In this document: piece after piece, positions 3,218-11,307 of the stretch
Numbering within the stretch: position 1 is the first letter of the stretch
Layout of the letters: each line of letters begins with the position of its first letter
NCBI GenBank assembly: GCA_005191425.1
Contig: SUPR01000083.1
Span: 1 to 15,072, forward strand
From: Candidatus Helarchaeota ASGARD archaeon Hel_GB_B
Lineage (GTDB): Archaea > Asgardarchaeota > Lokiarchaeia > Helarchaeales > HEL-GB-B
Direction: 5' to 3'
DNA: 15,072 nt
Program-made: the position numbers and the translations under genes
The notes under the pieces: generated by a model
What the model saw: the letters and a program-made list of their open reading frames with translations, nothing else
What the model was told of the DNA's origin: nothing
Database searches by the model: none

Positions 3218-4159
3218 ATGGATATAAGAATTATAGAGACTTTAGCAACAATAGGGATCTTTGGATTAGGTATTTTGTTAATTTTTTTAATTTGGAATTA
3301 TTTATCATGGTATTCGTTAATAATTGTCGTCCCAATAATTATTATTTTAGAAATCTATATCTTAAACAAAATTGATGATTATCATGTCATTAAAAAGAAG
3401 ACCAAGCTAATACAATTGGGAGTTATATCTCAAGAAGAACGAGAAATCAGAAAACCAGTTATTGATGAATTTGAAAATTATAAAAGCAAAGTAAATCAGT
3501 CAATTAAGAATTTAAACAATATATTAATAGATATGGACGATGTATATAATGAGGCTCTTTTTTTAATTGAAGATGGAGAAATTTTTAATGCAAGAAAAAA
3601 GTTCAAGACAATGCTAGCAAGAGCAAATAAGGATATTGAACAAGAAGATATAAAAGTAATTTCATTAACGAATAAGGCACTTGAAACAGCGAACCCAACA
3701 TTAAATATGTCAATAAAGAATTATAAGGAACTTTGGGACAAAACAAGAATTGATATACTTAAAAAAATCAAGGATATTGCAGATAAATTTAAAATTCGGT
3801 CTGAATTAGAATCACAAATTAAAAAGATTTTTAAATTTGAGATAGATAATAACCGACCAGTTAGTGAGAATGACCTTGATACATTAGAACTTCCACTTGA
3901 CCAATATAGAAGGTTATTACGAATTATAGAAAAACCTGTGAAAATTGATATCAAAAAAATGGACCAAAACGAAAAACAACGAATGGGCGAAATCTCAAAA
4001 AAGGTAATATCAGTCTGTATGAAAAATGGAATAACTCCAAATTTGGCATATCTTTTTTATGCATTACAAATAGACTTAAAGACGTCAAAAGAAATTTTAA
4101 GTTATTTGAAAAATATTGGAATGATTGATGTAATATTTTACCACATTGTACCAAAATAA
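3218..4159 (+). CDS. Hypothetical membrane-anchored protein: two N-terminal TM helices, a helical/coiled region and a possible C-terminal winged HTH
   Basis: 313-aa ORF with ATG start and AAAGGA upstream. Hydrophobic stretches at about aa 9-29 and 31-49. No family recognised. Confidence 0.75.
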   Translation: MDIRIIETLATIGIFGLGILLIFLIWNYLSWYSLIIVVPIIIILEIYILNKIDDYHVIKKKTKLIQLGVISQEEREIRKPVIDEFENYKSKVNQSIKNLNNILIDMDDVYNEALFLIEDGEIFNARKKFKTMLARANKDIEQEDIKVISLTNKALETANPTLNMSIKNYKELWDKTRIDILKKIKDIADKFKIRSELESQIKKIFKFEIDNNRPVSENDLDTLELPLDQYRRLLRIIEKPVKIDIKKMDQNEKQRMGEISKKVISVCMKNGITPNLAYLFYALQIDLKTSKEILSYLKNIGMIDVIFYHIVPK

Positions 4160-4224
4160 TTTAATAAAATTTAAAAACGATTAATTGATTTAGATAATAA
4201 AAAATGCCGGGATAGCCAAGCGGT

Positions 4225-4251
4225 ATTAGGTATTATTATATCTAAAGTTAA
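4225..4251 (+). other. tRNA-Ser intron 1 (27 nt, position 20/21, relaxed BHB)
   Basis: 8-bp inner hairpin TTAGGTAT/ATATCTAA, bulges GT^A and AA^A, central helix AGCG/AGTT (one G-A mismatch, one G-U). Removal gives the normal D-arm GCCAAGCGGTACGGC. The spliced product cannot distinguish this from a 1-nt shift (21/22); BHB geometry favours 20/21. Confidence 0.8.
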
Positions 4252-4284
4252 ACGGCGACAGGCTCGAGACCTGTTGGTCATCTG

Positions 4285-4314
4285 TCAAAATATCATTAGA
4301 TATTATTGGATGAA
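4285..4314 (+). other. tRNA-Ser intron 2 (30 nt, inside the variable arm)
   Basis: Perfect 4-bp central helix CATC/GATG, bulges TG^T and AA^A, inner hairpin AATATC-ATTA-GATATT. Removal restores a 4-bp variable stem GGTC/GACC. Confidence 0.85.
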
Positions 4315-4351
4315 ACCTCATGAGTTCGAATCTCATTCCCGGCGTCATCCA

Positions 4352-4365
4352 TTCTTTTTATTTTT
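4352..4365 (+). terminator. Probable oligo(T) terminator of tRNA-Ser
   Basis: TTCTTTTTATTTTT starts 8 nt after the discriminator base, as is typical of archaeal terminators. Confidence 0.5.
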
Positions 4366-4540
4366 AAATTATTTAAGACAAATTTAATTTTTTAATTATT
4401 ATAAAATTGAGTTTGAAGTTTATTAACCGCAATATAGCTGTTCATGTTGTTAGAATGGAAATAATTTTGCTCGTGTTAATAAAATCTGTTTTTTTGAAAC
4501 AAATTTAATAATAAATTAGTCTATATATAAAGGAATAATT

Positions 4541-5413
4541 ATGAAGACGAAAAATATTGATGATATGACAGAAGAATTTCGGAATAAATTCCAGATAATT
4601 GGAAGAGAAAAAGAGATACGGCAGGCGATTCTTGCAAGATTGGCTGGAAAACATATATTAATTGAAGGAGAAGTTGGAGTTGGAAAAACAACATTATCTA
4701 AAGCTCTTGCTAATTTTTTTGACCAAAATTTTTATCGTATTGATGGAGATGAACGATTTACAGAAGCAAAATTAGTAGGACATTTTGATCCTCCACTGGT
4801 CTTAAAAGATGGATATACACCAAATAGCTTTTTTGATGGGCCTTTAACAAGTGCCATGAAAAATGGTGGGATTTTGTTTATTAATGAATTAAATCGATTA
4901 CCTGAAAGGACGCAAAATGTATTATTATCTTCTTTAGATGAAGGAATATTACATATACCAAAATTGGGGCAAATAATTGCAAAAGAGGGCTTTACAGTCA
5001 TTGCAACACAAAACCCAAGTGAGCATGTAGGCGTTGGACTCTTGGGTGAGGCTTTAAAAGACCGGTTTGTGTGGATTAAATTGGACTATCAGTCATTTAG
5101 AGAAGAAGTTGAAATAACCAAATTAAAAACTAATTTTGATCAACAAGATGTTTTAGAAAAAGCAGTCAAAATAGTACGGATGACAAGAGAAAGTCCACAA
5201 TTACGAAGAGGATCATCAGTCAGAGGCGCAATTGACATTGTTTCTATTTTAAAAAACATATTAAACGGGGGTAAGATTAGTTCTTCAGATTGGAATGAAG
5301 TTGCTATAATGAGTTTGGCTCCAAAGGTTGATTTGGAAGATGGTATAGAGTTACCCATTGAGTCAATTATCAGTAATATCGTTTCTCGAGTTATAAATTC
5401 TGAAAACCCTTGA
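4541..5413 (+). CDS. MoxR-like AAA+ ATPase (AAA_5 type)
   Basis: Walker A GEVGVGKT, variant Walker B ILFINE followed by LNR, sensor-1 region ATQNP, ALKDRF, and C-terminal SSVRGAID. Directly upstream of a vWA gene. Confidence 0.9.
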   Translation: MKTKNIDDMTEEFRNKFQIIGREKEIRQAILARLAGKHILIEGEVGVGKTTLSKALANFFDQNFYRIDGDERFTEAKLVGHFDPPLVLKDGYTPNSFFDGPLTSAMKNGGILFINELNRLPERTQNVLLSSLDEGILHIPKLGQIIAKEGFTVIATQNPSEHVGVGLLGEALKDRFVWIKLDYQSFREEVEITKLKTNFDQQDVLEKAVKIVRMTRESPQLRRGSSVRGAIDIVSILKNILNGGKISSSDWNEVAIMSLAPKVDLEDGIELPIESIISNIVSRVINSENP

Positions 5414-6507
5414 ATTTGGATGAGTTAGGTAATGTGCCTAATGACAATTTTTTAGTTGACGAACGAATACGTCTTATGGGTGAGTTTCCGTTAAAAAAAA
5501 TAATTGAAGCCGAAATTAAGAGAAAATGGAATAATGCAGATCAATTTGAAAAACTTCTTAAAGAAGCTGCATTGAATAGAGATGAACTTAGGAGATTAAC
5601 AGATGTAGCTATAAAATATCAAAATAAAGCAGCATTAGAAGGATTTGCACATATAAATAGAATGGTGGTAGCTGAAGCTCTTCAAACAGATGAAGCAGTA
5701 AAATTATTAGATAGGAGGTCTACTAATGAAGAGTCAAATGCACCAGAAATTTTTTTCTTGATCAGAAATTATCTTGAGCCAAAATTTAAAAAACTTTATA
5801 GAAGGTTAGCCAGGTCTTCAATATTACACTTGTCCCTGAAAATTGCTGCTAAATGGCTAAAAGGAGAAATCCCGAAAAAGGTACAATACGACCACGGACT
5901 TGAATTTGACCTAGAAGATACCCTTGAAATATTCTTAGAAAAAGGCTTTAATATTACTTACGAAGATATCGTGGGAATTTTCAGGGAGAAAAAACGGAAA
6001 ATAGGACTTGTAATTATTGACACAAGTGGAAGTATGCATTATGAAAAAATTATCAATGCAGCTCTAACAGCAAGCGTTTTAGCTTATACAATGCGCGAAG
6101 ATGAATATAGTATAATAACCTTTAATACTCAAGCAAAAACTCTTACAGGTTTTAATGATAAAAAAAATACTGAAGAAATCATTGACCAAATACTTGAATC
6201 AGAAGCTATTGGTTATACGAATATAACTGCAGCTCTTAAATTGGGCTTAAAGGAGCTTTTAAAGTTAAAAAGACGCGAAAAATGGGCGATTTTAATAACA
6301 GATGGGAATTATAATAAGGGAGGAGATCCCCGAAAATGGGCATTAAAATATCCAAAATTACATGTAATTGCAATCCCAAGCCGTAAAGAGAAGTGGGGTC
6401 TAAGAATTTGTGAGGATTTGGCTAGAAAAGGGAGAGGTAGGTTTATTAAAGTATCTAAATATTCAGATATTCCAAGAATACTTGCTAAAATGTTGAGAGA
6501 TATTTAG
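5410..6507 (+). CDS. von Willebrand factor A (vWA) domain protein, partner of the MoxR ATPase
   Basis: Complete MIDAS: IIDTSGSM, GYTNI and LITDG. DLEDTLE-type pre-vWA segment. TTG start overlaps the MoxR stop (TTGA). The exact start is uncertain. Confidence 0.88.
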   Translation: MNLDELGNVPNDNFLVDERIRLMGEFPLKKIIEAEIKRKWNNADQFEKLLKEAALNRDELRRLTDVAIKYQNKAALEGFAHINRMVVAEALQTDEAVKLLDRRSTNEESNAPEIFFLIRNYLEPKFKKLYRRLARSSILHLSLKIAAKWLKGEIPKKVQYDHGLEFDLEDTLEIFLEKGFNITYEDIVGIFREKKRKIGLVIIDTSGSMHYEKIINAALTASVLAYTMREDEYSIITFNTQAKTLTGFNDKKNTEEIIDQILESEAIGYTNITAALKLGLKELLKLKRREKWAILITDGNYNKGGDPRKWALKYPKLHVIAIPSRKEKWGLRICEDLARKGRGRFIKVSKYSDIPRILAKMLRDI

Positions 6508-6525
6508 AAAGAAAACATATTAGAG

Positions 6526-6541
6526 AAAGAAAAATTAAAAA
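6526..6541 (-). terminator. Probable oligo(T) terminator of tRNA-Leu
   Basis: The minus strand reads TTTTTAATTTTTCTTT beginning 2 nt after the discriminator. Confidence 0.5.
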
Positions 6542-6556
6542 GTGCGGGGAGTGGGA

Positions 6557-6572
6557 TTTTCGGATTTTCTCT
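6557..6572 (-). other. tRNA-Leu intron 3 (16 nt, T-loop position 59/60)
   Basis: Central helix TTCG/CGAA (4/4 pairs), bulges AA^A and AA^T, outer helix is the T-stem. Removal gives TTCGAAT. Confidence 0.88.
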
Positions 6573-6589
6573 TTCGAACCCACGCAGGC

Positions 6590-6612
6590 TAGCGCTATGA
6601 TTTGATTCATAT
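6590..6612 (-). other. tRNA-Leu intron 2 (23 nt, variable arm)
   Basis: Central helix GCGT/GCGC, bulges AG^A and TA^G, inner helix TATGA/TCATA. Removal gives GGC-GTAG-GCC. Confidence 0.88.
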
Positions 6613-6626
6613 CTACGCCACTGGGT

Positions 6627-6660
6627 ATCTCAAACCAATTATATGCACTATAATAGGGAG
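6627..6660 (-). other. tRNA-Leu intron 1 (34 nt, canonical position 37/38)
   Basis: C32-A35 (CTCA) pairs perfectly with intron TGAG, bulges GG^C and AT^A, inner hairpin ATTATA/TATAAT. Confidence 0.92.
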
Positions 6661-6720
6661 CCTGAGCCCAGTTCCTTTGGCCAACTCGGACATCCCCGCT
6701 TTTTTTATTGCTCTTTTATG

Positions 6721-6728
6721 CATTTAAA
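6721..6728 (-). promoter_or_regulatory. Possible TATA box for tRNA-Leu
   Basis: TTTAAATG lies at -29 to -22 relative to the mature 5' end. The AT-rich background limits specificity. Confidence 0.35.
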
Positions 6729-6736
6729 CAAAAGCA

Positions 6737-8524
6737 TTAGGTTCTTTTAAACTTTTTTTCAATCTCATTTTTTGAAAAAGAAATAATTGTCGGTCTTCCA
6801 TGACAACAACTAAATGGATTTTGGCAAAAACTGAGTTCTTTCACCAAATTTATCGCTCTTTCATCTGATAAAACAGTATTTGCTTTTATAGCACCTTTAC
6901 ATGACAACAAATTTACAATTTTATTTCTTAAATCTTTTAAAGATAATTTTCCTTTAATATGGATAAGTTCGTCCAATAAATCTTTAATTTCGTCCATTGT
7001 TAATATTTTTTTAAAGATGATAGGGATTCCTTTAACTATAAAAGTTGTCCCCCCAAAATGTGAGATTTCAAACCCATAATCAGATAATAATGGAATTATT
7101 TTTTTAATATCGATTAATTCACCAGGTAATAAATCGATTTTAATAGGTGAAATTAATTTTTGAGTTCTAATTGGTTTAGAGCTATTTGCTTTTAATAATT
7201 GCTCTAATCTAATTCGCTCATGAGCGGCATGCTGGTCAATTAAATAAAAGTTTTCTTCATCTGAGAAAAGTAAATATGTTTTAAATAGTTGTCCAATATA
7301 TTCCATTGGAGGTAATTTTTTTGTTTTATCGGGTTTTGATATAAGATCGGGTTTTTGCTTATAATTACCTGTTATTTTGACATTATCTACTAATAACTTT
7401 TGTTTTTTCTGGTGCTTTAAAGTTGGAATAGTATTTTTATCAGTGTGTCGAATATTCTTTTTAAATTCACTTAATTCCAACTTATTTACAGGTTCTAATT
7501 TAATTTCTCTTACTTGTTTAATATTATCAAGTACATTTTTTACTGCAATTTGAACTACATCATAAATATCATCTTCATTAATAAACCGAACTTCCTTTTT
7601 TGTGGGGTGGATATTTACATCTACAAGTTTTGGATCAATAATTATATTTAAAATGGTAATTGGATATTTATTTCGCATCAATAAAGTCCTGTAAGCGTCA
7701 AGAATTGCATTCATTATTATTGGATTTTTGATCACTCTATTATTGACAATTATTGTGATATAATATTTACTTGCCCTAATTTCTTGTAAATTAGAGGTAT
7801 ATCCGGTAATTTTAATCCAGTCATTTTGAAAATCAATTTTTAACATATTTTTTGCAACGTCAACTCCGTAGCGCCTAGCGATGTTATCTAATAGTTTACC
7901 GGTACCTGGTAAATTTAGAATTTCTCGTCCATTATGAGTTAGCTTAAATGATATTGCAGGGTTTGCAAATGCAATTAACGAGACAGTTTCAATTATGTGT
8001 CCCAATTCAGTATTAAGAGATTTCAAATATTTTTTTCGGACAGGTACATTGTAGAACAGATTTTTTACACTTATGGAAGTACCTTCAGGACATCCAATTT
8101 CAGAAATCTTTAAAATTTTTCCACCGTTGATAGTTATTAAAGTACCCGTGGTAGAATTTTTAGTCCTTGTTTTCAGCTCAATGTTGGAGACGACTGCAAT
8201 ACTGGCGAGTGCCTCTCCTCTAAAGCCAAAAGTTCTTACCATCATTAAGTCATCAAAACTTCTAATTTTACTTGTAGAGTGGCTCTCAAAAGCTAGTTGA
8301 GCATTTTTTTTACTCATACCGTGTCCATTATCAATTACAGTAATTTCTTTAAGCCCGCCATCTAAAATTATAATTTCGATTTTTGTGGCTTTTGCATCTA
8401 TCGAATTTTCTATCAATTCTTTAACCACAGAAGCGGGTCGTTCTATTACTTCACCTGCAGCTATTTGGTTTATTAATTTTTCATCTAAAATTTTAATTTC
8501 TGGCTCTAAAACAGCATCGACCAT
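6737..8524 (-). CDS. mutL: DNA mismatch repair endonuclease MutL
   Basis: QIAAGEVIERPASVVKELIENSIDA, DNGHGM, TFGFRGEALASI, VDVNIHPTKKEVRF, endonuclease motif DQHAAHERIRLE, SCK, and CCHGRP. Confidence 0.98.
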   Translation of the reverse strand: MVDAVLEPEIKILDEKLINQIAAGEVIERPASVVKELIENSIDAKATKIEIIILDGGLKEITVIDNGHGMSKKNAQLAFESHSTSKIRSFDDLMMVRTFGFRGEALASIAVVSNIELKTRTKNSTTGTLITINGGKILKISEIGCPEGTSISVKNLFYNVPVRKKYLKSLNTELGHIIETVSLIAFANPAISFKLTHNGREILNLPGTGKLLDNIARRYGVDVAKNMLKIDFQNDWIKITGYTSNLQEIRASKYYITIIVNNRVIKNPIIMNAILDAYRTLLMRNKYPITILNIIIDPKLVDVNIHPTKKEVRFINEDDIYDVVQIAVKNVLDNIKQVREIKLEPVNKLELSEFKKNIRHTDKNTIPTLKHQKKQKLLVDNVKITGNYKQKPDLISKPDKTKKLPPMEYIGQLFKTYLLFSDEENFYLIDQHAAHERIRLEQLLKANSSKPIRTQKLISPIKIDLLPGELIDIKKIIPLLSDYGFEISHFGGTTFIVKGIPIIFKKILTMDEIKDLLDELIHIKGKLSLKDLRNKIVNLLSCKGAIKANTVLSDERAINLVKELSFCQNPFSCCHGRPTIISFSKNEIEKKFKRT

Positions 8525-8530
8525 TAATAT

Positions 8531-11188
8531 CTACTCCCAGTTCTTAATCTTTTTCTGGAGTTCGAATAATTTATTTAAAGCGTTAATTGGGGACATATTA
8601 TGAATATCCAAGTTTTTTAAATCTTCAATAATTTCTTTTTCATATTTGTGATGTATTTCCTTTTTATCTTCAATTTTAGGAGTAAAGGTTAATTGGACTA
8701 TTTTTTTTCGTTTATTCTTTTTTGGGGTGAAATTGTTTTCAGTCTGAACAGTAATTTCATGCCCGCTTTCTAAGGACTCGAGTATTTCGGAAGCTCGCAT
8801 AATAACTTTATGAGGAAGTCCAGCTAACTTTGCTACTTCTATTCCGTAGGACTTATCGCAACCTCCAGGAGTAATTTGATAGAGAAAAATGATGTCGTTA
8901 TCTTTTCTCTTTACCAAAATATTATAATTTTTGATATTATCAAAATATTTAGTTAATTCATTTAATTGATGGTAATGAGTGGCGAACAATGTCCTAGCTC
9001 CAATAGTTTTTACAATATATTCTACTACTGCCCATGCAATACTCAGTCCATCAAATGTAGCGGTTCCCCTACCAATTTCATCCAGAATAATTAGACTGTT
9101 TTTTGTTGCATTATTCAAAATATTTGCGGTTTCGTTCATTTCGACTAAAAATGTCGATTGCTGTAATACTATATTGTCATATGCACCTACACGAACAAAA
9201 ATTTGGTCTACAATTCCAATTTCAGCTTTTTCAGCCGGAATAAAAGACCCCATTTGTGCCAATATAACAATTTGAGCAACTTGCCTTAAATAAGTAGATT
9301 TTCCAGCCATATTAGGGCCAGTTATAATTAATAATTGGTTCTGATTATCATCTATTAATACATCATTTGGAATGAATTTATTACCCAGTATAACATCGAG
9401 GACGGGGTGTCTACCATTTTTAATCCAAATTTTATATGAATTATTTACTTCTGGTTTAATATAATTATATAAAACTGCTACTTCAGCAAGAGAGGTATAA
9501 ATATCAATTTCGGAAATTAAATCTGAAATGGCTTGGATGGGTAGAATGTATTTTTTTATTTCCCCCAAAATCTTTAAAAATAGTTCATATTCAAGCTCAT
9601 TGACTTGTTCTTCAGCATTAAGTATTTTTTCCTCCCAAGATTTTAGTTCCTCAGTAAAAAATCGTTCTGAATTAACTAAAGTTTGTTTTTTAATATAATT
9701 TTTAGGTACCAAATGTAAATTTGGTTTGGTAACTTCTATAAAATATCCAAAAATTTTATTATATTTTACCTTGAGAGATTTTATTCCAGTCCTTATTCTT
9801 TCATTATTTTCCAATTTAATTAAAAAGTTTTTACCTTCGTCCTTTATTTTTATAAGTTCATCTAATTTACTGTTATATCCTCTCTTAATAATTCCACCAT
9901 CATGTAGGGTATTAGATGGGTCATCTTTTATAGATTTCCTGATTAATTCGGCGACCTCTAATACTTTTTCAATTAGGTCATTATTAAAAAAGTCCTTTAG
10001 TTCCTCAGTTTTTTCACTTAATATCTTATCAATTTCAGGGACTTTTTCAATTGAATTCCTTAAAGAAATTAAATCTTTGGCATTGGCAGATCCATGACTT
10101 ATTTTTCCTATAAGTCGTTCAATATCAGAGATTTCTTTTAAACACGTCCTAATATCTTGTCTTAATATTAAATCTTCTTTAAAAATTTCAATCATTAACT
10201 GTCTATATTTAATCATGTTAATATCTAGTAGAGGTTGTTTTAACCAACGTTTTAATTTTCTACTCCCCATTGGAGTTATTGTTTTATTTAAAATAGAGAG
10301 TAAAGTCCCCTCAGTAGTATCGTTCATTATGTTTCTAACTAGTTCTAAATTTCTTTGTGATGCAGCATCAATTACTAAAAAATCTTCCTGGTTATAAATA
10401 CTGAATTTCTTGATATTATTTTCTTTCAATTTTTGAATTTCTTGTAGATATAGAATAATAGCGCCAGCACTCTTGATTATTAACGGTTTATCTTCACACC
10501 CAAATCCGTGTAGGTTTAACAGACCAAAATGTTCCAAAAGAGCATTTCTTGCATTTTCTAGATCAAATATATAATCTTCTCGTGGATATATAGTCATTGA
10601 AGTATATTTTTTTAATTTATTTATTAATTCTTCATCTTTATTTATCGATTGAGGGAGGATACATTCTGTAGGATTAAAACGGACTATTTCGGATATCAAT
10701 TTTCCAATCGAGTCCTCTTCTGTATCGCCTTTTACCATTGTACCAAAAAATTCACCAGTTGAAACATCTACAAAAGCCAATCCGAACACTAATTTAGACC
10801 GTGTTATTGCTATTAGATAGTTATTCTCTTGGTCGTCTAGCATCATTAGGTCAGTTATTGTGCCAGGTGTGATCACTTTAGTGACTTCTCTTTGCACTAC
10901 TGGGCCGGATTTTTTACTTGCATCTTCTATTTGGTCACAAATAGCTACTTTGTGCCCATTATCGATCAACATTTTTATATATTTATTAACACTATGATAA
11001 GGCACACCGCTCATTGGTACCTTTAAACTCCCATAATCTTTAGCTGTCAGTACAATCTTGCAACTTTCTGCTAATATTTTTGCATCTTCGTTATAACATT
11101 CATAAAAATCGCCGACTCTAAATAATAATACTGAGTCGTTGTATTCCTTCTTAATAGCTTCATATTGTCTTAACATTGGAGTACTCAT
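8531..11188 (-). CDS. mutS: DNA mismatch repair protein MutS (MutS1)
   Basis: TPMLRQY N-terminus, mismatch-binding GDFYE, REVTKVITPGT, Walker A GPNMAGKST, Walker B ILDEIGRGT, FATHY, SYGIEVAKLAG. The start is placed at ATG 11188 (MSTPM), matching the conserved MutS N-terminus, rather than 11245 from the ORF track. Confidence 0.98.
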   Translation of the reverse strand: MSTPMLRQYEAIKKEYNDSVLLFRVGDFYECYNEDAKILAESCKIVLTAKDYGSLKVPMSGVPYHSVNKYIKMLIDNGHKVAICDQIEDASKKSGPVVQREVTKVITPGTITDLMMLDDQENNYLIAITRSKLVFGLAFVDVSTGEFFGTMVKGDTEEDSIGKLISEIVRFNPTECILPQSINKDEELINKLKKYTSMTIYPREDYIFDLENARNALLEHFGLLNLHGFGCEDKPLIIKSAGAIILYLQEIQKLKENNIKKFSIYNQEDFLVIDAASQRNLELVRNIMNDTTEGTLLSILNKTITPMGSRKLKRWLKQPLLDINMIKYRQLMIEIFKEDLILRQDIRTCLKEISDIERLIGKISHGSANAKDLISLRNSIEKVPEIDKILSEKTEELKDFFNNDLIEKVLEVAELIRKSIKDDPSNTLHDGGIIKRGYNSKLDELIKIKDEGKNFLIKLENNERIRTGIKSLKVKYNKIFGYFIEVTKPNLHLVPKNYIKKQTLVNSERFFTEELKSWEEKILNAEEQVNELEYELFLKILGEIKKYILPIQAISDLISEIDIYTSLAEVAVLYNYIKPEVNNSYKIWIKNGRHPVLDVILGNKFIPNDVLIDDNQNQLLIITGPNMAGKSTYLRQVAQIVILAQMGSFIPAEKAEIGIVDQIFVRVGAYDNIVLQQSTFLVEMNETANILNNATKNSLIILDEIGRGTATFDGLSIAWAVVEYIVKTIGARTLFATHYHQLNELTKYFDNIKNYNILVKRKDNDIIFLYQITPGGCDKSYGIEVAKLAGLPHKVIMRASEILESLESGHEITVQTENNFTPKKNKRKKIVQLTFTPKIEDKKEIHHKYEKEIIEDLKNLDIHNMSPINALNKLFELQKKIKNWE

Positions 11189-11307
11189 AAAAAGTGCACT
11201 TTCATCAAAAATTAAGAGTAAATATCTAAATATGATTTTATACAAGTGTATTAAATTATTTTCTTAAAATAAAAAAGTATAGACATTATGTCGAAAATTA
11301 AGATGTA

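Follow-up and report, generated by a model that had tools for sequence, protein, structure and literature searches.

Multi-intron tRNA genes have been described in Thermoproteales (Sugahara et al. 2008, as presented in PMC11291895 and bioRxiv 10.64898/2026.10.13.758758), hyperthermophilic Thermoproteota with GC-rich RNAs, in which related introns occur at different sites, as expected of transposition. Heavy multi-intron loads have also been published for soil-dwelling, non-thermophilic Asgard archaea (PMC11291895, 2024; Goswami et al. 2026, bioRxiv 10.64898/2026.10.13.758758). According to the Goswami preprint, 92-98% of the tRNA genes in its focal families are interrupted, with 2.0-2.4 introns per gene, its ‘elevated’ non-focal families have a median of 0.86 and reach up to 1.65-2.1, and its panel gives no sign of intron copying (bioRxiv 10.64898/2026.10.13.758758). 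The splicing endonuclease EndA of Aeropyrum pernix (alpha2-beta2; PDB 3P1Z and 3AJV) carries a specificity loop, with described roles for K44 and R46, that gives the enzyme a broad substrate range (Hirata et al. 2011, PMC3241643). An (alpha-beta)2 EndA with this loop has already been published for Asgard archaea, and an EndA with the L1 loop is compatible with a TACK or an Asgard host (PMC5829648).

Here, we analyse a 15,072-nt stretch of DNA (the window; contig SUPR01000083.1 of assembly GCA_005191425.1) from the Helarchaeota archaeon Hel_GB_B and find that both of its tRNA genes, for tRNA-Ser(CGA) and tRNA-Leu(CAG), are interrupted several times (Table 1). ARAGORN called no tRNA in the unspliced window, and Rfam gave none at the gathering threshold or at E <= 10. 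When the unspliced genes were submitted to ARAGORN alone, the Leu gene drew no call and the Ser gene a spurious Asp; with its intron option the program placed a tRNA-Asp, also spurious, at 4205-4346 of the window. Excision of all introns yielded tRNA-Ser(cga) and tRNA-Leu(cag) as canonical cloverleaves, with no damage in either to any of the four stems or to the conserved bases of the loops. Partial excision lost the call, except that the canonical 37/38 intron was tolerated; for tRNA-Leu(cag) the call requires that the variable-arm and T-loop introns both be removed. Four of the five introns have the full 4-bp central helix between 3-nt bulges of a bulge-helix-bulge (BHB) motif, the exception being the Ser D-loop intron. 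The first-pass annotation had described five inserts in two multi-intron tRNA genes at these coordinates, and this description holds, with tRNA-Leu on the minus strand; its count of two intron-bearing genes out of two also stands, given that an intron-aware search located no other tRNA gene on the contig.

Table 1. Positions of the two tRNA genes, their introns and flanking elements in the window (minus-strand gene parts are listed in the direction of transcription).
Feature	Position	Strand	Description
tRNA-Ser(CGA) gene	4206-4344	+	139 nt including discriminator G, 2 introns
tRNA-Ser(CGA) exons	4206-4224, 4252-4284, 4315-4344	+	
Ser intron 1	4225-4251	+	27 nt, D-loop (about 20/21)
Ser intron 2	4285-4314	+	30 nt, variable-arm loop
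TATA-box-like TTTAAAAA	4170-4177	+	29-36 nt upstream of tRNA-Ser; putative promoter, read from sequence
T-rich tract TTCTTTTTATTTTT	4352-4365	+	3' of tRNA-Ser; putative terminator, read from sequence
tRNA-Leu(CAG) gene	6699-6543	-	157 nt including discriminator A, 3 introns
tRNA-Leu(CAG) exons	6699-6661, 6626-6613, 6589-6573, 6556-6543	-	39, 14, 17, 14 nt
Leu intron 1	6660-6627	-	34 nt, canonical position 37/38
Leu intron 2	6612-6590	-	23 nt, variable arm, after TGGCGTAG
Leu intron 3	6572-6557	-	16 nt, T-loop position 59/60
TATA-box-like TTTAAAT	6722-6728	-	23-29 nt upstream of tRNA-Leu; putative promoter, read from sequence
T-rich tract TTTTTAATTTTT	6530-6541	-	3' of tRNA-Leu; putative terminator, read from sequence

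The mature tRNA-Ser(CGA) is an 82-nt class II tRNA with a long variable arm, an acceptor stem GCCGGGA/TCCCGGC, the anticodon loop CTCGAGA and the T arm ATGAG-TTCGAAT-CTCAT. Its first intron uses the D-stem as outer helix and has the bulges GTA and AAA, an inner hairpin of 8 bp and a central helix AGCG/AGTT that forms three of four pairs in Hel_GB_B; shifting the boundary by a single base (A|A) leaves the mature RNA unchanged. Excision produces the D-loop AAGCGGTAC, a near-match to that of the Ser(GGA) and Ser(TGA) paralogs. The second intron has a complete central helix (CATC/GATG, 4/4 pairs), the bulges TGT and AAA and a 9-bp inner hairpin with a single bulged A, and its removal leaves the variable arm T-GGTC-ATCT-GACC-TC. 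The ortholog in a genome of the same genus (G001) is 89% identical and keeps both introns. There, the central helix of intron 1 reads GATG/CATT and pairs fully (4/4), changed on both strands relative to Hel_GB_B, and a G.U pair of its hairpin has become G-C; in intron 2 the bulged A is deleted, which gives a perfect hairpin. Compensatory change is thus seen for both Ser introns, in a comparison with this single same-genus ortholog. ARAGORN also still calls Ser when either 22 nt (gene positions 27-48) or 24 nt (24-47) are taken out of the D-loop instead. The 22-nt version has a 4-bp helix and leaves an unusually long D-loop of 14 nt; we prefer gene positions 20-46 because of the compensatory changes in G001 and the normal length of the resulting D-loop.

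The mature tRNA-Leu(CAG) measures 84 nt, with an acceptor stem GCGGGGA/TCCCCGC and the D arm TCC-GAGTTGGCCAAA-GGA. All three of its introns have complete central helices: CTCA/TGAG in intron 1, for which the anticodon stem, reaching six pairs, is the outer helix and the 3' bulge is ATA; GCGT/GCGC, including one G.U wobble, in intron 2, with an inner helix of 5 bp; and TTCG/CGAA in intron 3, with the 5-bp T stem as outer helix and the 3' bulge AAA. The variable region left by excision of intron 2, TGGCGTAGGCCTGC, is identical in Leu(TAG) of G001 and of another genome, G005, and in Leu(GAG) of G001, and differs by one base from that of Hel_GB_B's own intron-free Leu(GAG). At least 10 further tRNA genes of Hel_GB_B carry an intron at 59/60, and paralogous Leu genes of relatives have the variable-arm and 59/60 intron positions in common. 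No Leu(CAG) ortholog was recovered from G001, and these introns therefore stand outside the covariation comparison. The TATA-box-like element of this gene lies in the 37-nt spacer after mutL.

Both genes score well above background in intron-aware cloverleaf scoring, with 83 for Ser(CGA) and 85 for Leu(CAG). As a chance control, the same routine was applied to acceptor-paired candidate regions across the whole genome (1026 regions), in which real tRNAs reached 70-87 and the top noise candidate 67. The intron-aware search located 35 tRNA genes, whereas ARAGORN and the Rfam model find 15-16. Of these 35, six are intron-free and 29 interrupted, 14 carrying at least two introns and five carrying three, and the architecture seen in the window recurs in 27 further genes; the genome-wide load that the first-pass annotation had proposed is therefore real. 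Introns concentrate in the D-arm, at 37/38, at 59/60 and in the variable region: among 37 well-resolved introns, 11 lie at 37/38 and 26 elsewhere, and 32 have the full 4-bp central helix. Their GC content (28%) is similar to that of the genome, against 60.5% for mature tRNAs and 75% for tRNA stems. The best similarity between introns scores 23 and the best shuffled control 22, which gives no evidence of intron copying between tRNA genes. An apparent suppressor tRNA on contig C36 (anticodon UUA) was rejected: it is Leu(CAA), whose anticodon arm holds two introns.

A full archaeal tRNA set comprises about 46 genes, and the census is incomplete, with about 11 expected anticodons lacking a located gene. 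These are the isoacceptors for Asn, His, Trp, Tyr, Gln-UUG, Glu-UUC, Gly-CCC and elongator Met, together with Pro-GGG/UGG, Thr-UGU and Arg-GCG/CCG. For these isoacceptors, a scan for 3' halves (anticodon arm plus T arm), 5'-half filters and a scan for T-loop introns returned nothing new, and a GC-island scan had too poor a specificity. A scan for intact T arms brought a single gain (C107:13221-13359), and exon BLAST added Leu(UAA). Two further leads, C18:8871-8894 and C137:11621-11635, were dropped because no matching 3' end lies within 340 nt. That the roughly 11 isoacceptors take forms undescribed for Asgard archaea (split, circularly permuted, or with introns in the acceptor or T stem), as opposed to being merely unassembled, strikes us as rather unlikely. 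The true intron load of Hel_GB_B is probably higher than the documented one, given that these genes stay hidden.

Two EndA paralogs are encoded, on contigs C36 (192 aa) and C98 (198 aa), and they are the only PF01974 matches in the genome; RtcB is encoded as well. The C36 protein is the catalytic alpha subunit and the C98 protein the beta-like one. The alpha subunit has A. pernix EndA as its best match among solved structures (E 2.5e-42). Its specificity loop, KPLGIRKPKSTDFDRPLELS, aligns without gaps to that of the A. pernix alpha subunit and places two positive residues, K48 and K50, at the positions of K44 and R46; the subunit also retains AVYEHGPGIDHAPF and, further along, VRKKF, and the His that PDB entry 3AJV mutates to Ala. 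The beta-like paralog has Ala at the position of the Methanocaldococcus jannaschii catalytic His, one residue of the Tyr/His/Lys triad. This second subunit is closest to the EndA of M. kandleri and M. jannaschii and not to A. pernix beta. The broad-specificity EndA that the first-pass annotation had predicted thus appears to be encoded, judging by the two-subunit type and the A. pernix-like loop.

We infer the following course of splicing, the order of intron removal and the substrate range of the enzyme included. The two BHB introns of the Ser(CGA) transcript and the three of Leu(CAG) would have to go before the tRNAs can fold. Each intron boundary would form a 4-bp helix between two 3-nt bulges, and an (alpha-beta)2 EndA would cleave each bulge between its second and third base. 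The alpha subunit would bring a specificity loop of the Crenarchaea/Asgard type, and because of this loop in the catalytic subunit the enzyme should accept introns outside 37/38; RtcB would then join the exons. The analysis shows the anatomy of the genes, their BHB geometry, the covariation with G001, the census across the genome and the enzyme genes including their key residues. On this basis both window genes are very probably functional tRNA genes whose BHB introns are removed by (alpha-beta)2 EndA and RtcB, as part of a genome-wide set.

The genome is a metagenome-assembled draft (93.7% complete, 182 contigs, 4.9% estimated contamination) with no 16S gene in the assembly. Two ESCRT-II EAP30 proteins above the Pfam cut-off and an MCR-alpha-like gene point to an Asgard host; a profilin match is weak. 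Of 40 genomes that belong to the same class or are more closely related, most give only 15-30 tRNAs with the standard model, so that hidden tRNAs are apparently class-wide and not particular to Hel_GB_B. Within the genome-wide set the two window genes are ordinary members, and they probably belong to a class-wide one as well. In standard pipelines this genome would appear short of more than half its tRNAs. Such annotation misses tRNAs, and inferences on codon usage, recoding or completeness drawn from it would therefore be wrong. The DNA of this stretch occurs in hydrothermal-vent and marine-sediment metagenomes, and none of the sequencing runs that contain it is recorded as RNA. M. jannaschii is AT-rich yet hyperthermophilic, and with tRNA stems of 75% GC and the hydrothermal-vent occurrence this makes low GC a weak argument for a non-hyperthermophilic host, as had been put forward in the first-pass annotation.

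The first-pass annotation had further proposed an independent intron expansion in a lineage that it took to be non-hyperthermophilic, which can be read as a case so far undocumented and apart from the groups known for such introns. The genome-wide load and the broad-specificity type of endonuclease fit such an expansion, and neither of the two Asgard tRNA-intron papers mentions Helarchaeales in its main text. We nevertheless regard it as improbable, since the genome carries Asgard markers, and the literature already documents comparable loads in Asgard archaea, including soil and non-thermophilic lineages (PMC11291895; bioRxiv 10.64898/2026.10.13.758758), and the enzyme type (PMC5829648). The first-pass annotation had itself stated that its proposal would fail if the pattern was on record for the lineage, as is the case for Asgard archaea. 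The deficit of standard tRNAs in most of the class genomes also argues against it, as does the sharing of the 59/60 and Leu variable-arm positions with other families of the order.

Hel_GB_B resembles the published Asgard cases in that most tRNA genes are interrupted, many by several introns, often at non-canonical positions and with BHB motifs; many tRNAs are missed by standard annotators, an (alpha-beta)2 EndA stands in the background, and, as in the Goswami panel, there is no sign of intron copying. It differs in lineage, its relatives falling into one class, with three families in the order, and in load, its 83% of located genes interrupted and approximately 1.4 introns per gene falling below the focal families and nearer the ‘elevated’ non-focal ones. 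With Thermoproteales it has in common up to three introns per gene in the D-arm, in the variable region, at 59/60 and at 37/38, as well as what its genes suggest to be a heterotetramer-type EndA with the Crenarchaea-specific loop. In contrast to theirs, its introns are AT-rich, with a genome-like composition and mutual similarity not above shuffled controls. Hence, this is a sound new example and not a new phenomenon, intron-laden Asgard tRNA genes having already been published, and it adds one more Asgard lineage, this one living in sediments of marine and hydrothermal origin. Intron presence varies within one genus and within one order, for example in the variable arm of Leu(GAG); such differences are raw material for the question of how introns arrive and pose no new question by themselves.

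The two genes could also be decaying pseudogenes or tRNA-like remnants with junk inserts, if working genes for Ser(CGA) and Leu(CAG) are elsewhere or dispensable. A draft in this many contigs leaves room for other copies, and the UGA and UAG isoacceptors might in theory decode UCG and CUG. However, each gene is the only one located for its anticodon in the genome, every insert sits at a precise BHB, and the spliced products retain every stem of the cloverleaf as well as the conserved bases of its loops. Together with the conserved Ser gene in G001, whose intron changes preserve structure, and the 27 other genes built in the same way, this makes decay very improbable and favours functional, spliced tRNA genes. 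Assembly or binning error, with the inserts lying in chimeric contigs, is conceivable for a metagenome-assembled genome with some estimated contamination, but it has next to no probability, given that 12 contigs, drawn from several assemblies in NCBI and ENA, encode an identical neighbouring protein and that contigs of four runs span the stretch, both tRNA regions included, at an identity of at least 99%.

A small number of ‘joints’ (4223>4321 and 6597>6673) also appear in the contigs of these four runs; they have short sides and unknown letters in between, most likely represent paralogous or foreign tRNA genes with common exon ends, and are given no weight here.

Neither tRNA gene of the window is visible to standard tools: ARAGORN returned zero tRNAs from the 15-kb window, and Rfam found none in the window at gathering scores, nor in 4100-6800 at E<=10. 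Direct reading of the window revealed two loci whose 7-nt ends pair and which contain identifiable tRNA elements. Their inserts were defined with two purpose-written programs, one that enumerates bulge-helix-bulge (BHB) motifs and a cloverleaf routine that allows for introns, and all exon and intron coordinates were rechecked against the sequence.

Features of the window and the inserts of its two tRNA genes
Feature	Position or site	Strand	Details
313-aa ORF	3218-4159	+	just upstream of tRNA-Ser; zero Pfam matches
tRNA-Ser(CGA)	4206-4344	+	acceptor GCCGGGA/TCCCGGC; anticodon loop CTCGAGA; T arm ATGAG-TTCGAAT-CTCAT
Ser(CGA) insert, 27 nt	D-loop		central helix AGCG/AGTT, 3/4 pairs; bulges GTA and AAA; inner hairpin 8 bp
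Ser(CGA) insert, 30 nt	variable-arm loop		central helix CATC/GATG; inner hairpin 9 bp
MoxR-type AAA+ ATPase (290 aa) and VWA-domain protein (365 aa)	4541-6507	+
tRNA-Leu(CAG)	6699-6543	-	acceptor GCGGGGA/TCCCCGC; class-II D arm; T stem GTGGG/CCCAC
Leu(CAG) insert, 34 nt	37/38		central helix CTCA/TGAG; outer helix = anticodon stem, 6 pairs with extension
Leu(CAG) insert, 23 nt	variable arm		central helix 4 bp including one G.U pair; inner helix 5 bp
Leu(CAG) insert, 16 nt	59/60		central helix TTCG/CGAA; outer helix = T stem
mutL (595 aa) and mutS (904 aa, five of five MutS domains)	6737-11245	-	full-length, bacterial-type

The five introns proposed by the first-pass annotation are confirmed by their BHB anatomy and by splicing in silico, and the two Ser introns also by an ortholog. 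Before splicing, ARAGORN makes no call for Leu and a spurious Asp call for Ser; with all inserts cut out it reports canonical cloverleaves for tRNA-Ser(cga) (82 nt) and tRNA-Leu(cag) (84 nt), and the Leu call is lost again if either the variable-arm or the T-loop insert is retained. The cloverleaf routine scored Ser(CGA) 83 and Leu(CAG) 85, compared with 70-87 for true tRNAs and 67 for the best noise in a control of 1026 acceptor-paired candidate regions across the genome. An assembly error is unlikely, given that several assemblies and runs carry the same DNA. Alternative excisions of the Ser D-loop intron are indistinguishable to ARAGORN, and the choice among them is decided by covariation in the same-genus relative G001, whose Ser(CGA) gene is 89% identical and keeps both inserts. 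There the D-loop central helix reads GATG/CATT, with both strands changed and 4/4 pairs, and the inner hairpin has G-C in place of a G.U pair; in the variable-arm intron a single bulged A is deleted, which leaves a perfect 9-bp hairpin. The 27-nt excision yields the D-loop AAGCGGTAC, resembling AAGCGGATTAC of the Ser(GGA)/(TGA) paralogs.

The genome-wide intron load that had been predicted is likewise supported by sequence evidence. The window is contig C166 of a 3.54-Mb genome (28% GC, 182 contigs, 93.7% complete), from which the Rfam tRNA model recovers just 15 genes above cut-off and 23 at E<=1, and in which intron-aware searching located 35: 33 scoring at least 70, one with acceptor GGGCTCG, and Leu(UAA) through exon homology. 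Manual curation corrected two calls of the routine, to Leu(CAA) on contig C36 (introns at 32/33, about 37/38-38/39 and 59/60) and Lys(CUU) on contig C98 (D-loop, 30/31 and about 38/39). Among the located genes 29 (83%) are interrupted, 14 by two or more introns and five by three (Leu-CAG, Leu-CAA, Leu-UAA, Pro-CGG and Lys-CUU), for a total of at least 48 introns or about 1.4 per gene; Thr-CGU, Cys, the second Asp-GUC, Ser-GCU, Ala-CGC and Leu-GAG are intron-free. The 37 well-resolved introns lie in the D-arm (11), at 37/38 (11), at 59/60 (10, one of them at 58/59) and in the variable region (5), and 32 have a complete 4-bp central helix. Introns have a mean length of 28 nt and, at 28% GC, match genome composition; they resemble one another no more than shuffled sequences do. 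Mature tRNAs have 60.5% GC. About 11 expected anticodons were missed across the whole genome by every intron-aware search, six extra search designs included, which is more than the 6% genome incompleteness explains (Asn, His, Trp, Tyr, Gln-UUG, Glu-UUC, Gly-CCC, elongator Met, Pro-GGG/UGG, Thr-UGU and Arg-GCG/CCG).

Several individual loci deserve mention. The gene with acceptor GGGCTCG/CGAGCCC (C107:13221-13359, minus strand) has an intact T arm and a D-loop intron of 37-39 nt; no 7-nt loop could be derived from the 33 nt within its anticodon arm CCCGC...GCGGG, and the gene is possibly an Arg(GCG/CCG) whose loop holds two introns. A second Cys(GCA)-like tRNA (C56:24600-24800, minus strand) with two inserts, a D-loop lacking GG and an odd T-loop, TGCGAAT, scores 65, below the tRNA threshold, and may represent either a pseudogene or a tRNA with a specialised role. 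The intron-free second tRNA-Asp(GUC) (C49:6464-6537, minus strand) has the acceptor GGGGGTG/CACTCCC, unlike that of the intron-containing, archaeal-looking Asp on C46, and may derive from a contaminant or mobile element; estimated contamination of the MAG is 4.9%. Within 2 kb at C165:693-2661, Gly-UCC, Gly-GCC, Val-GAC, Phe-GAA and Ala-GGC are all interrupted, and ARAGORN merges two of these genes into a false Ala with a '1632-nt intron'.

The genome also encodes a candidate enzyme for such introns. Pfam tRNA_int_endo matches two genes only. The 192-aa protein on C36 matches best the catalytic alpha subunit of the Aeropyrum pernix splicing endonuclease EndA (3P1Z_B, E 2.5e-42), aligns gap-free across the Crenarchaea-specific loop (L1), with K48 and K50 opposite A. 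pernix K44 and R46, and keeps the His that was mutated to Ala in PDB entry 3AJV. It is through this loop that the A. pernix enzyme can cut D-loop introns and relaxed ones, with K44 as the RNA-recognition residue (Hirata et al., PMC3241643). The 198-aa protein on C98 is nearest to EndA of M. kandleri and M. jannaschii and has Ala at the catalytic His position, as would be expected for a structural beta subunit. The pair fits an (alpha-beta)2 architecture carrying the L1 loop, and the broad-type endonuclease suggested earlier is supported at the sequence level, from which we infer both assembly and substrate range. An RtcB ligase is also encoded.

What does not hold, by the first-pass annotation's own test, is the proposal of an independent, undocumented expansion, because Asgard archaea with this pattern have been published. 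Asgard archaea were described as having an (alpha-beta)2 EndA that contains the L1 insert, and their incomplete tRNA sets were taken as a sign of unidentified disrupted genes (Kaneta et al. 2018, PMC5829648). In wetland-soil Atabeyarchaeia and Freyarchaeia, introns occur in 92-95% of tRNA genes, more than half of which have multiple introns, often at non-canonical sites (Valentin-Alvarado et al. 2024, PMC11291895). Across 90 Asgard genomes, the number of inserts per gene was 2.0-2.4 for two classes and 0.9-2.1 for other families, with repeated gains, BHB placement and a widespread two-subunit EndA (2026 preprint, bioRxiv 10.64898/2026.10.13.758758). The use of low GC as a sign of non-hyperthermophily is also weak: a hyperthermophile can have a low-GC genome, the stems of the mature tRNAs have 75% GC, and habitat labels include hydrothermal sediments. 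The DNA of the window was recovered in hydrothermal-vent and marine-sediment metagenomes of several studies. The temperature argument is in any case unnecessary, given that non-thermophilic Asgard archaea with such an intron load are published. Lineage-related genes in the genome comprise two EAP30 (ESCRT-II) proteins above the Pfam cut-off, a weak profilin match and one MCR-alpha-like gene.

Of the 40 genomes searched, all from this class or more closely related, most yield 15-30 genes with the standard tRNA model, and the few with 45-53 matches owe their count to dense compact-tRNA arrays on single contigs; hidden tRNAs are thus the norm for this class. Two relatives carry such arrays (G009:C54:19101-20390 and 25170-26270; G020:C80:11-13035), in which about 20 compact tRNA genes, apparently without introns, share a single contig, while their other tRNA genes are mostly unseen by the standard model. 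These arrays could be mobile-element or virus cargo, or contamination. Leu genes of relatives use the same variable-arm and 59/60 positions with variable occupancy: Leu(GAG) has the variable-arm intron in G001 but not in the genome under study, and Leu(UAG) of a further relative, G005, has the 59/60 intron only.

Among the protein-coding neighbours in the window, mutL and mutS immediately precede tRNA-Leu on its own strand, and the MoxR-type/VWA gene pair, with overlapping stop and start codons, is placed between the two tRNA genes.
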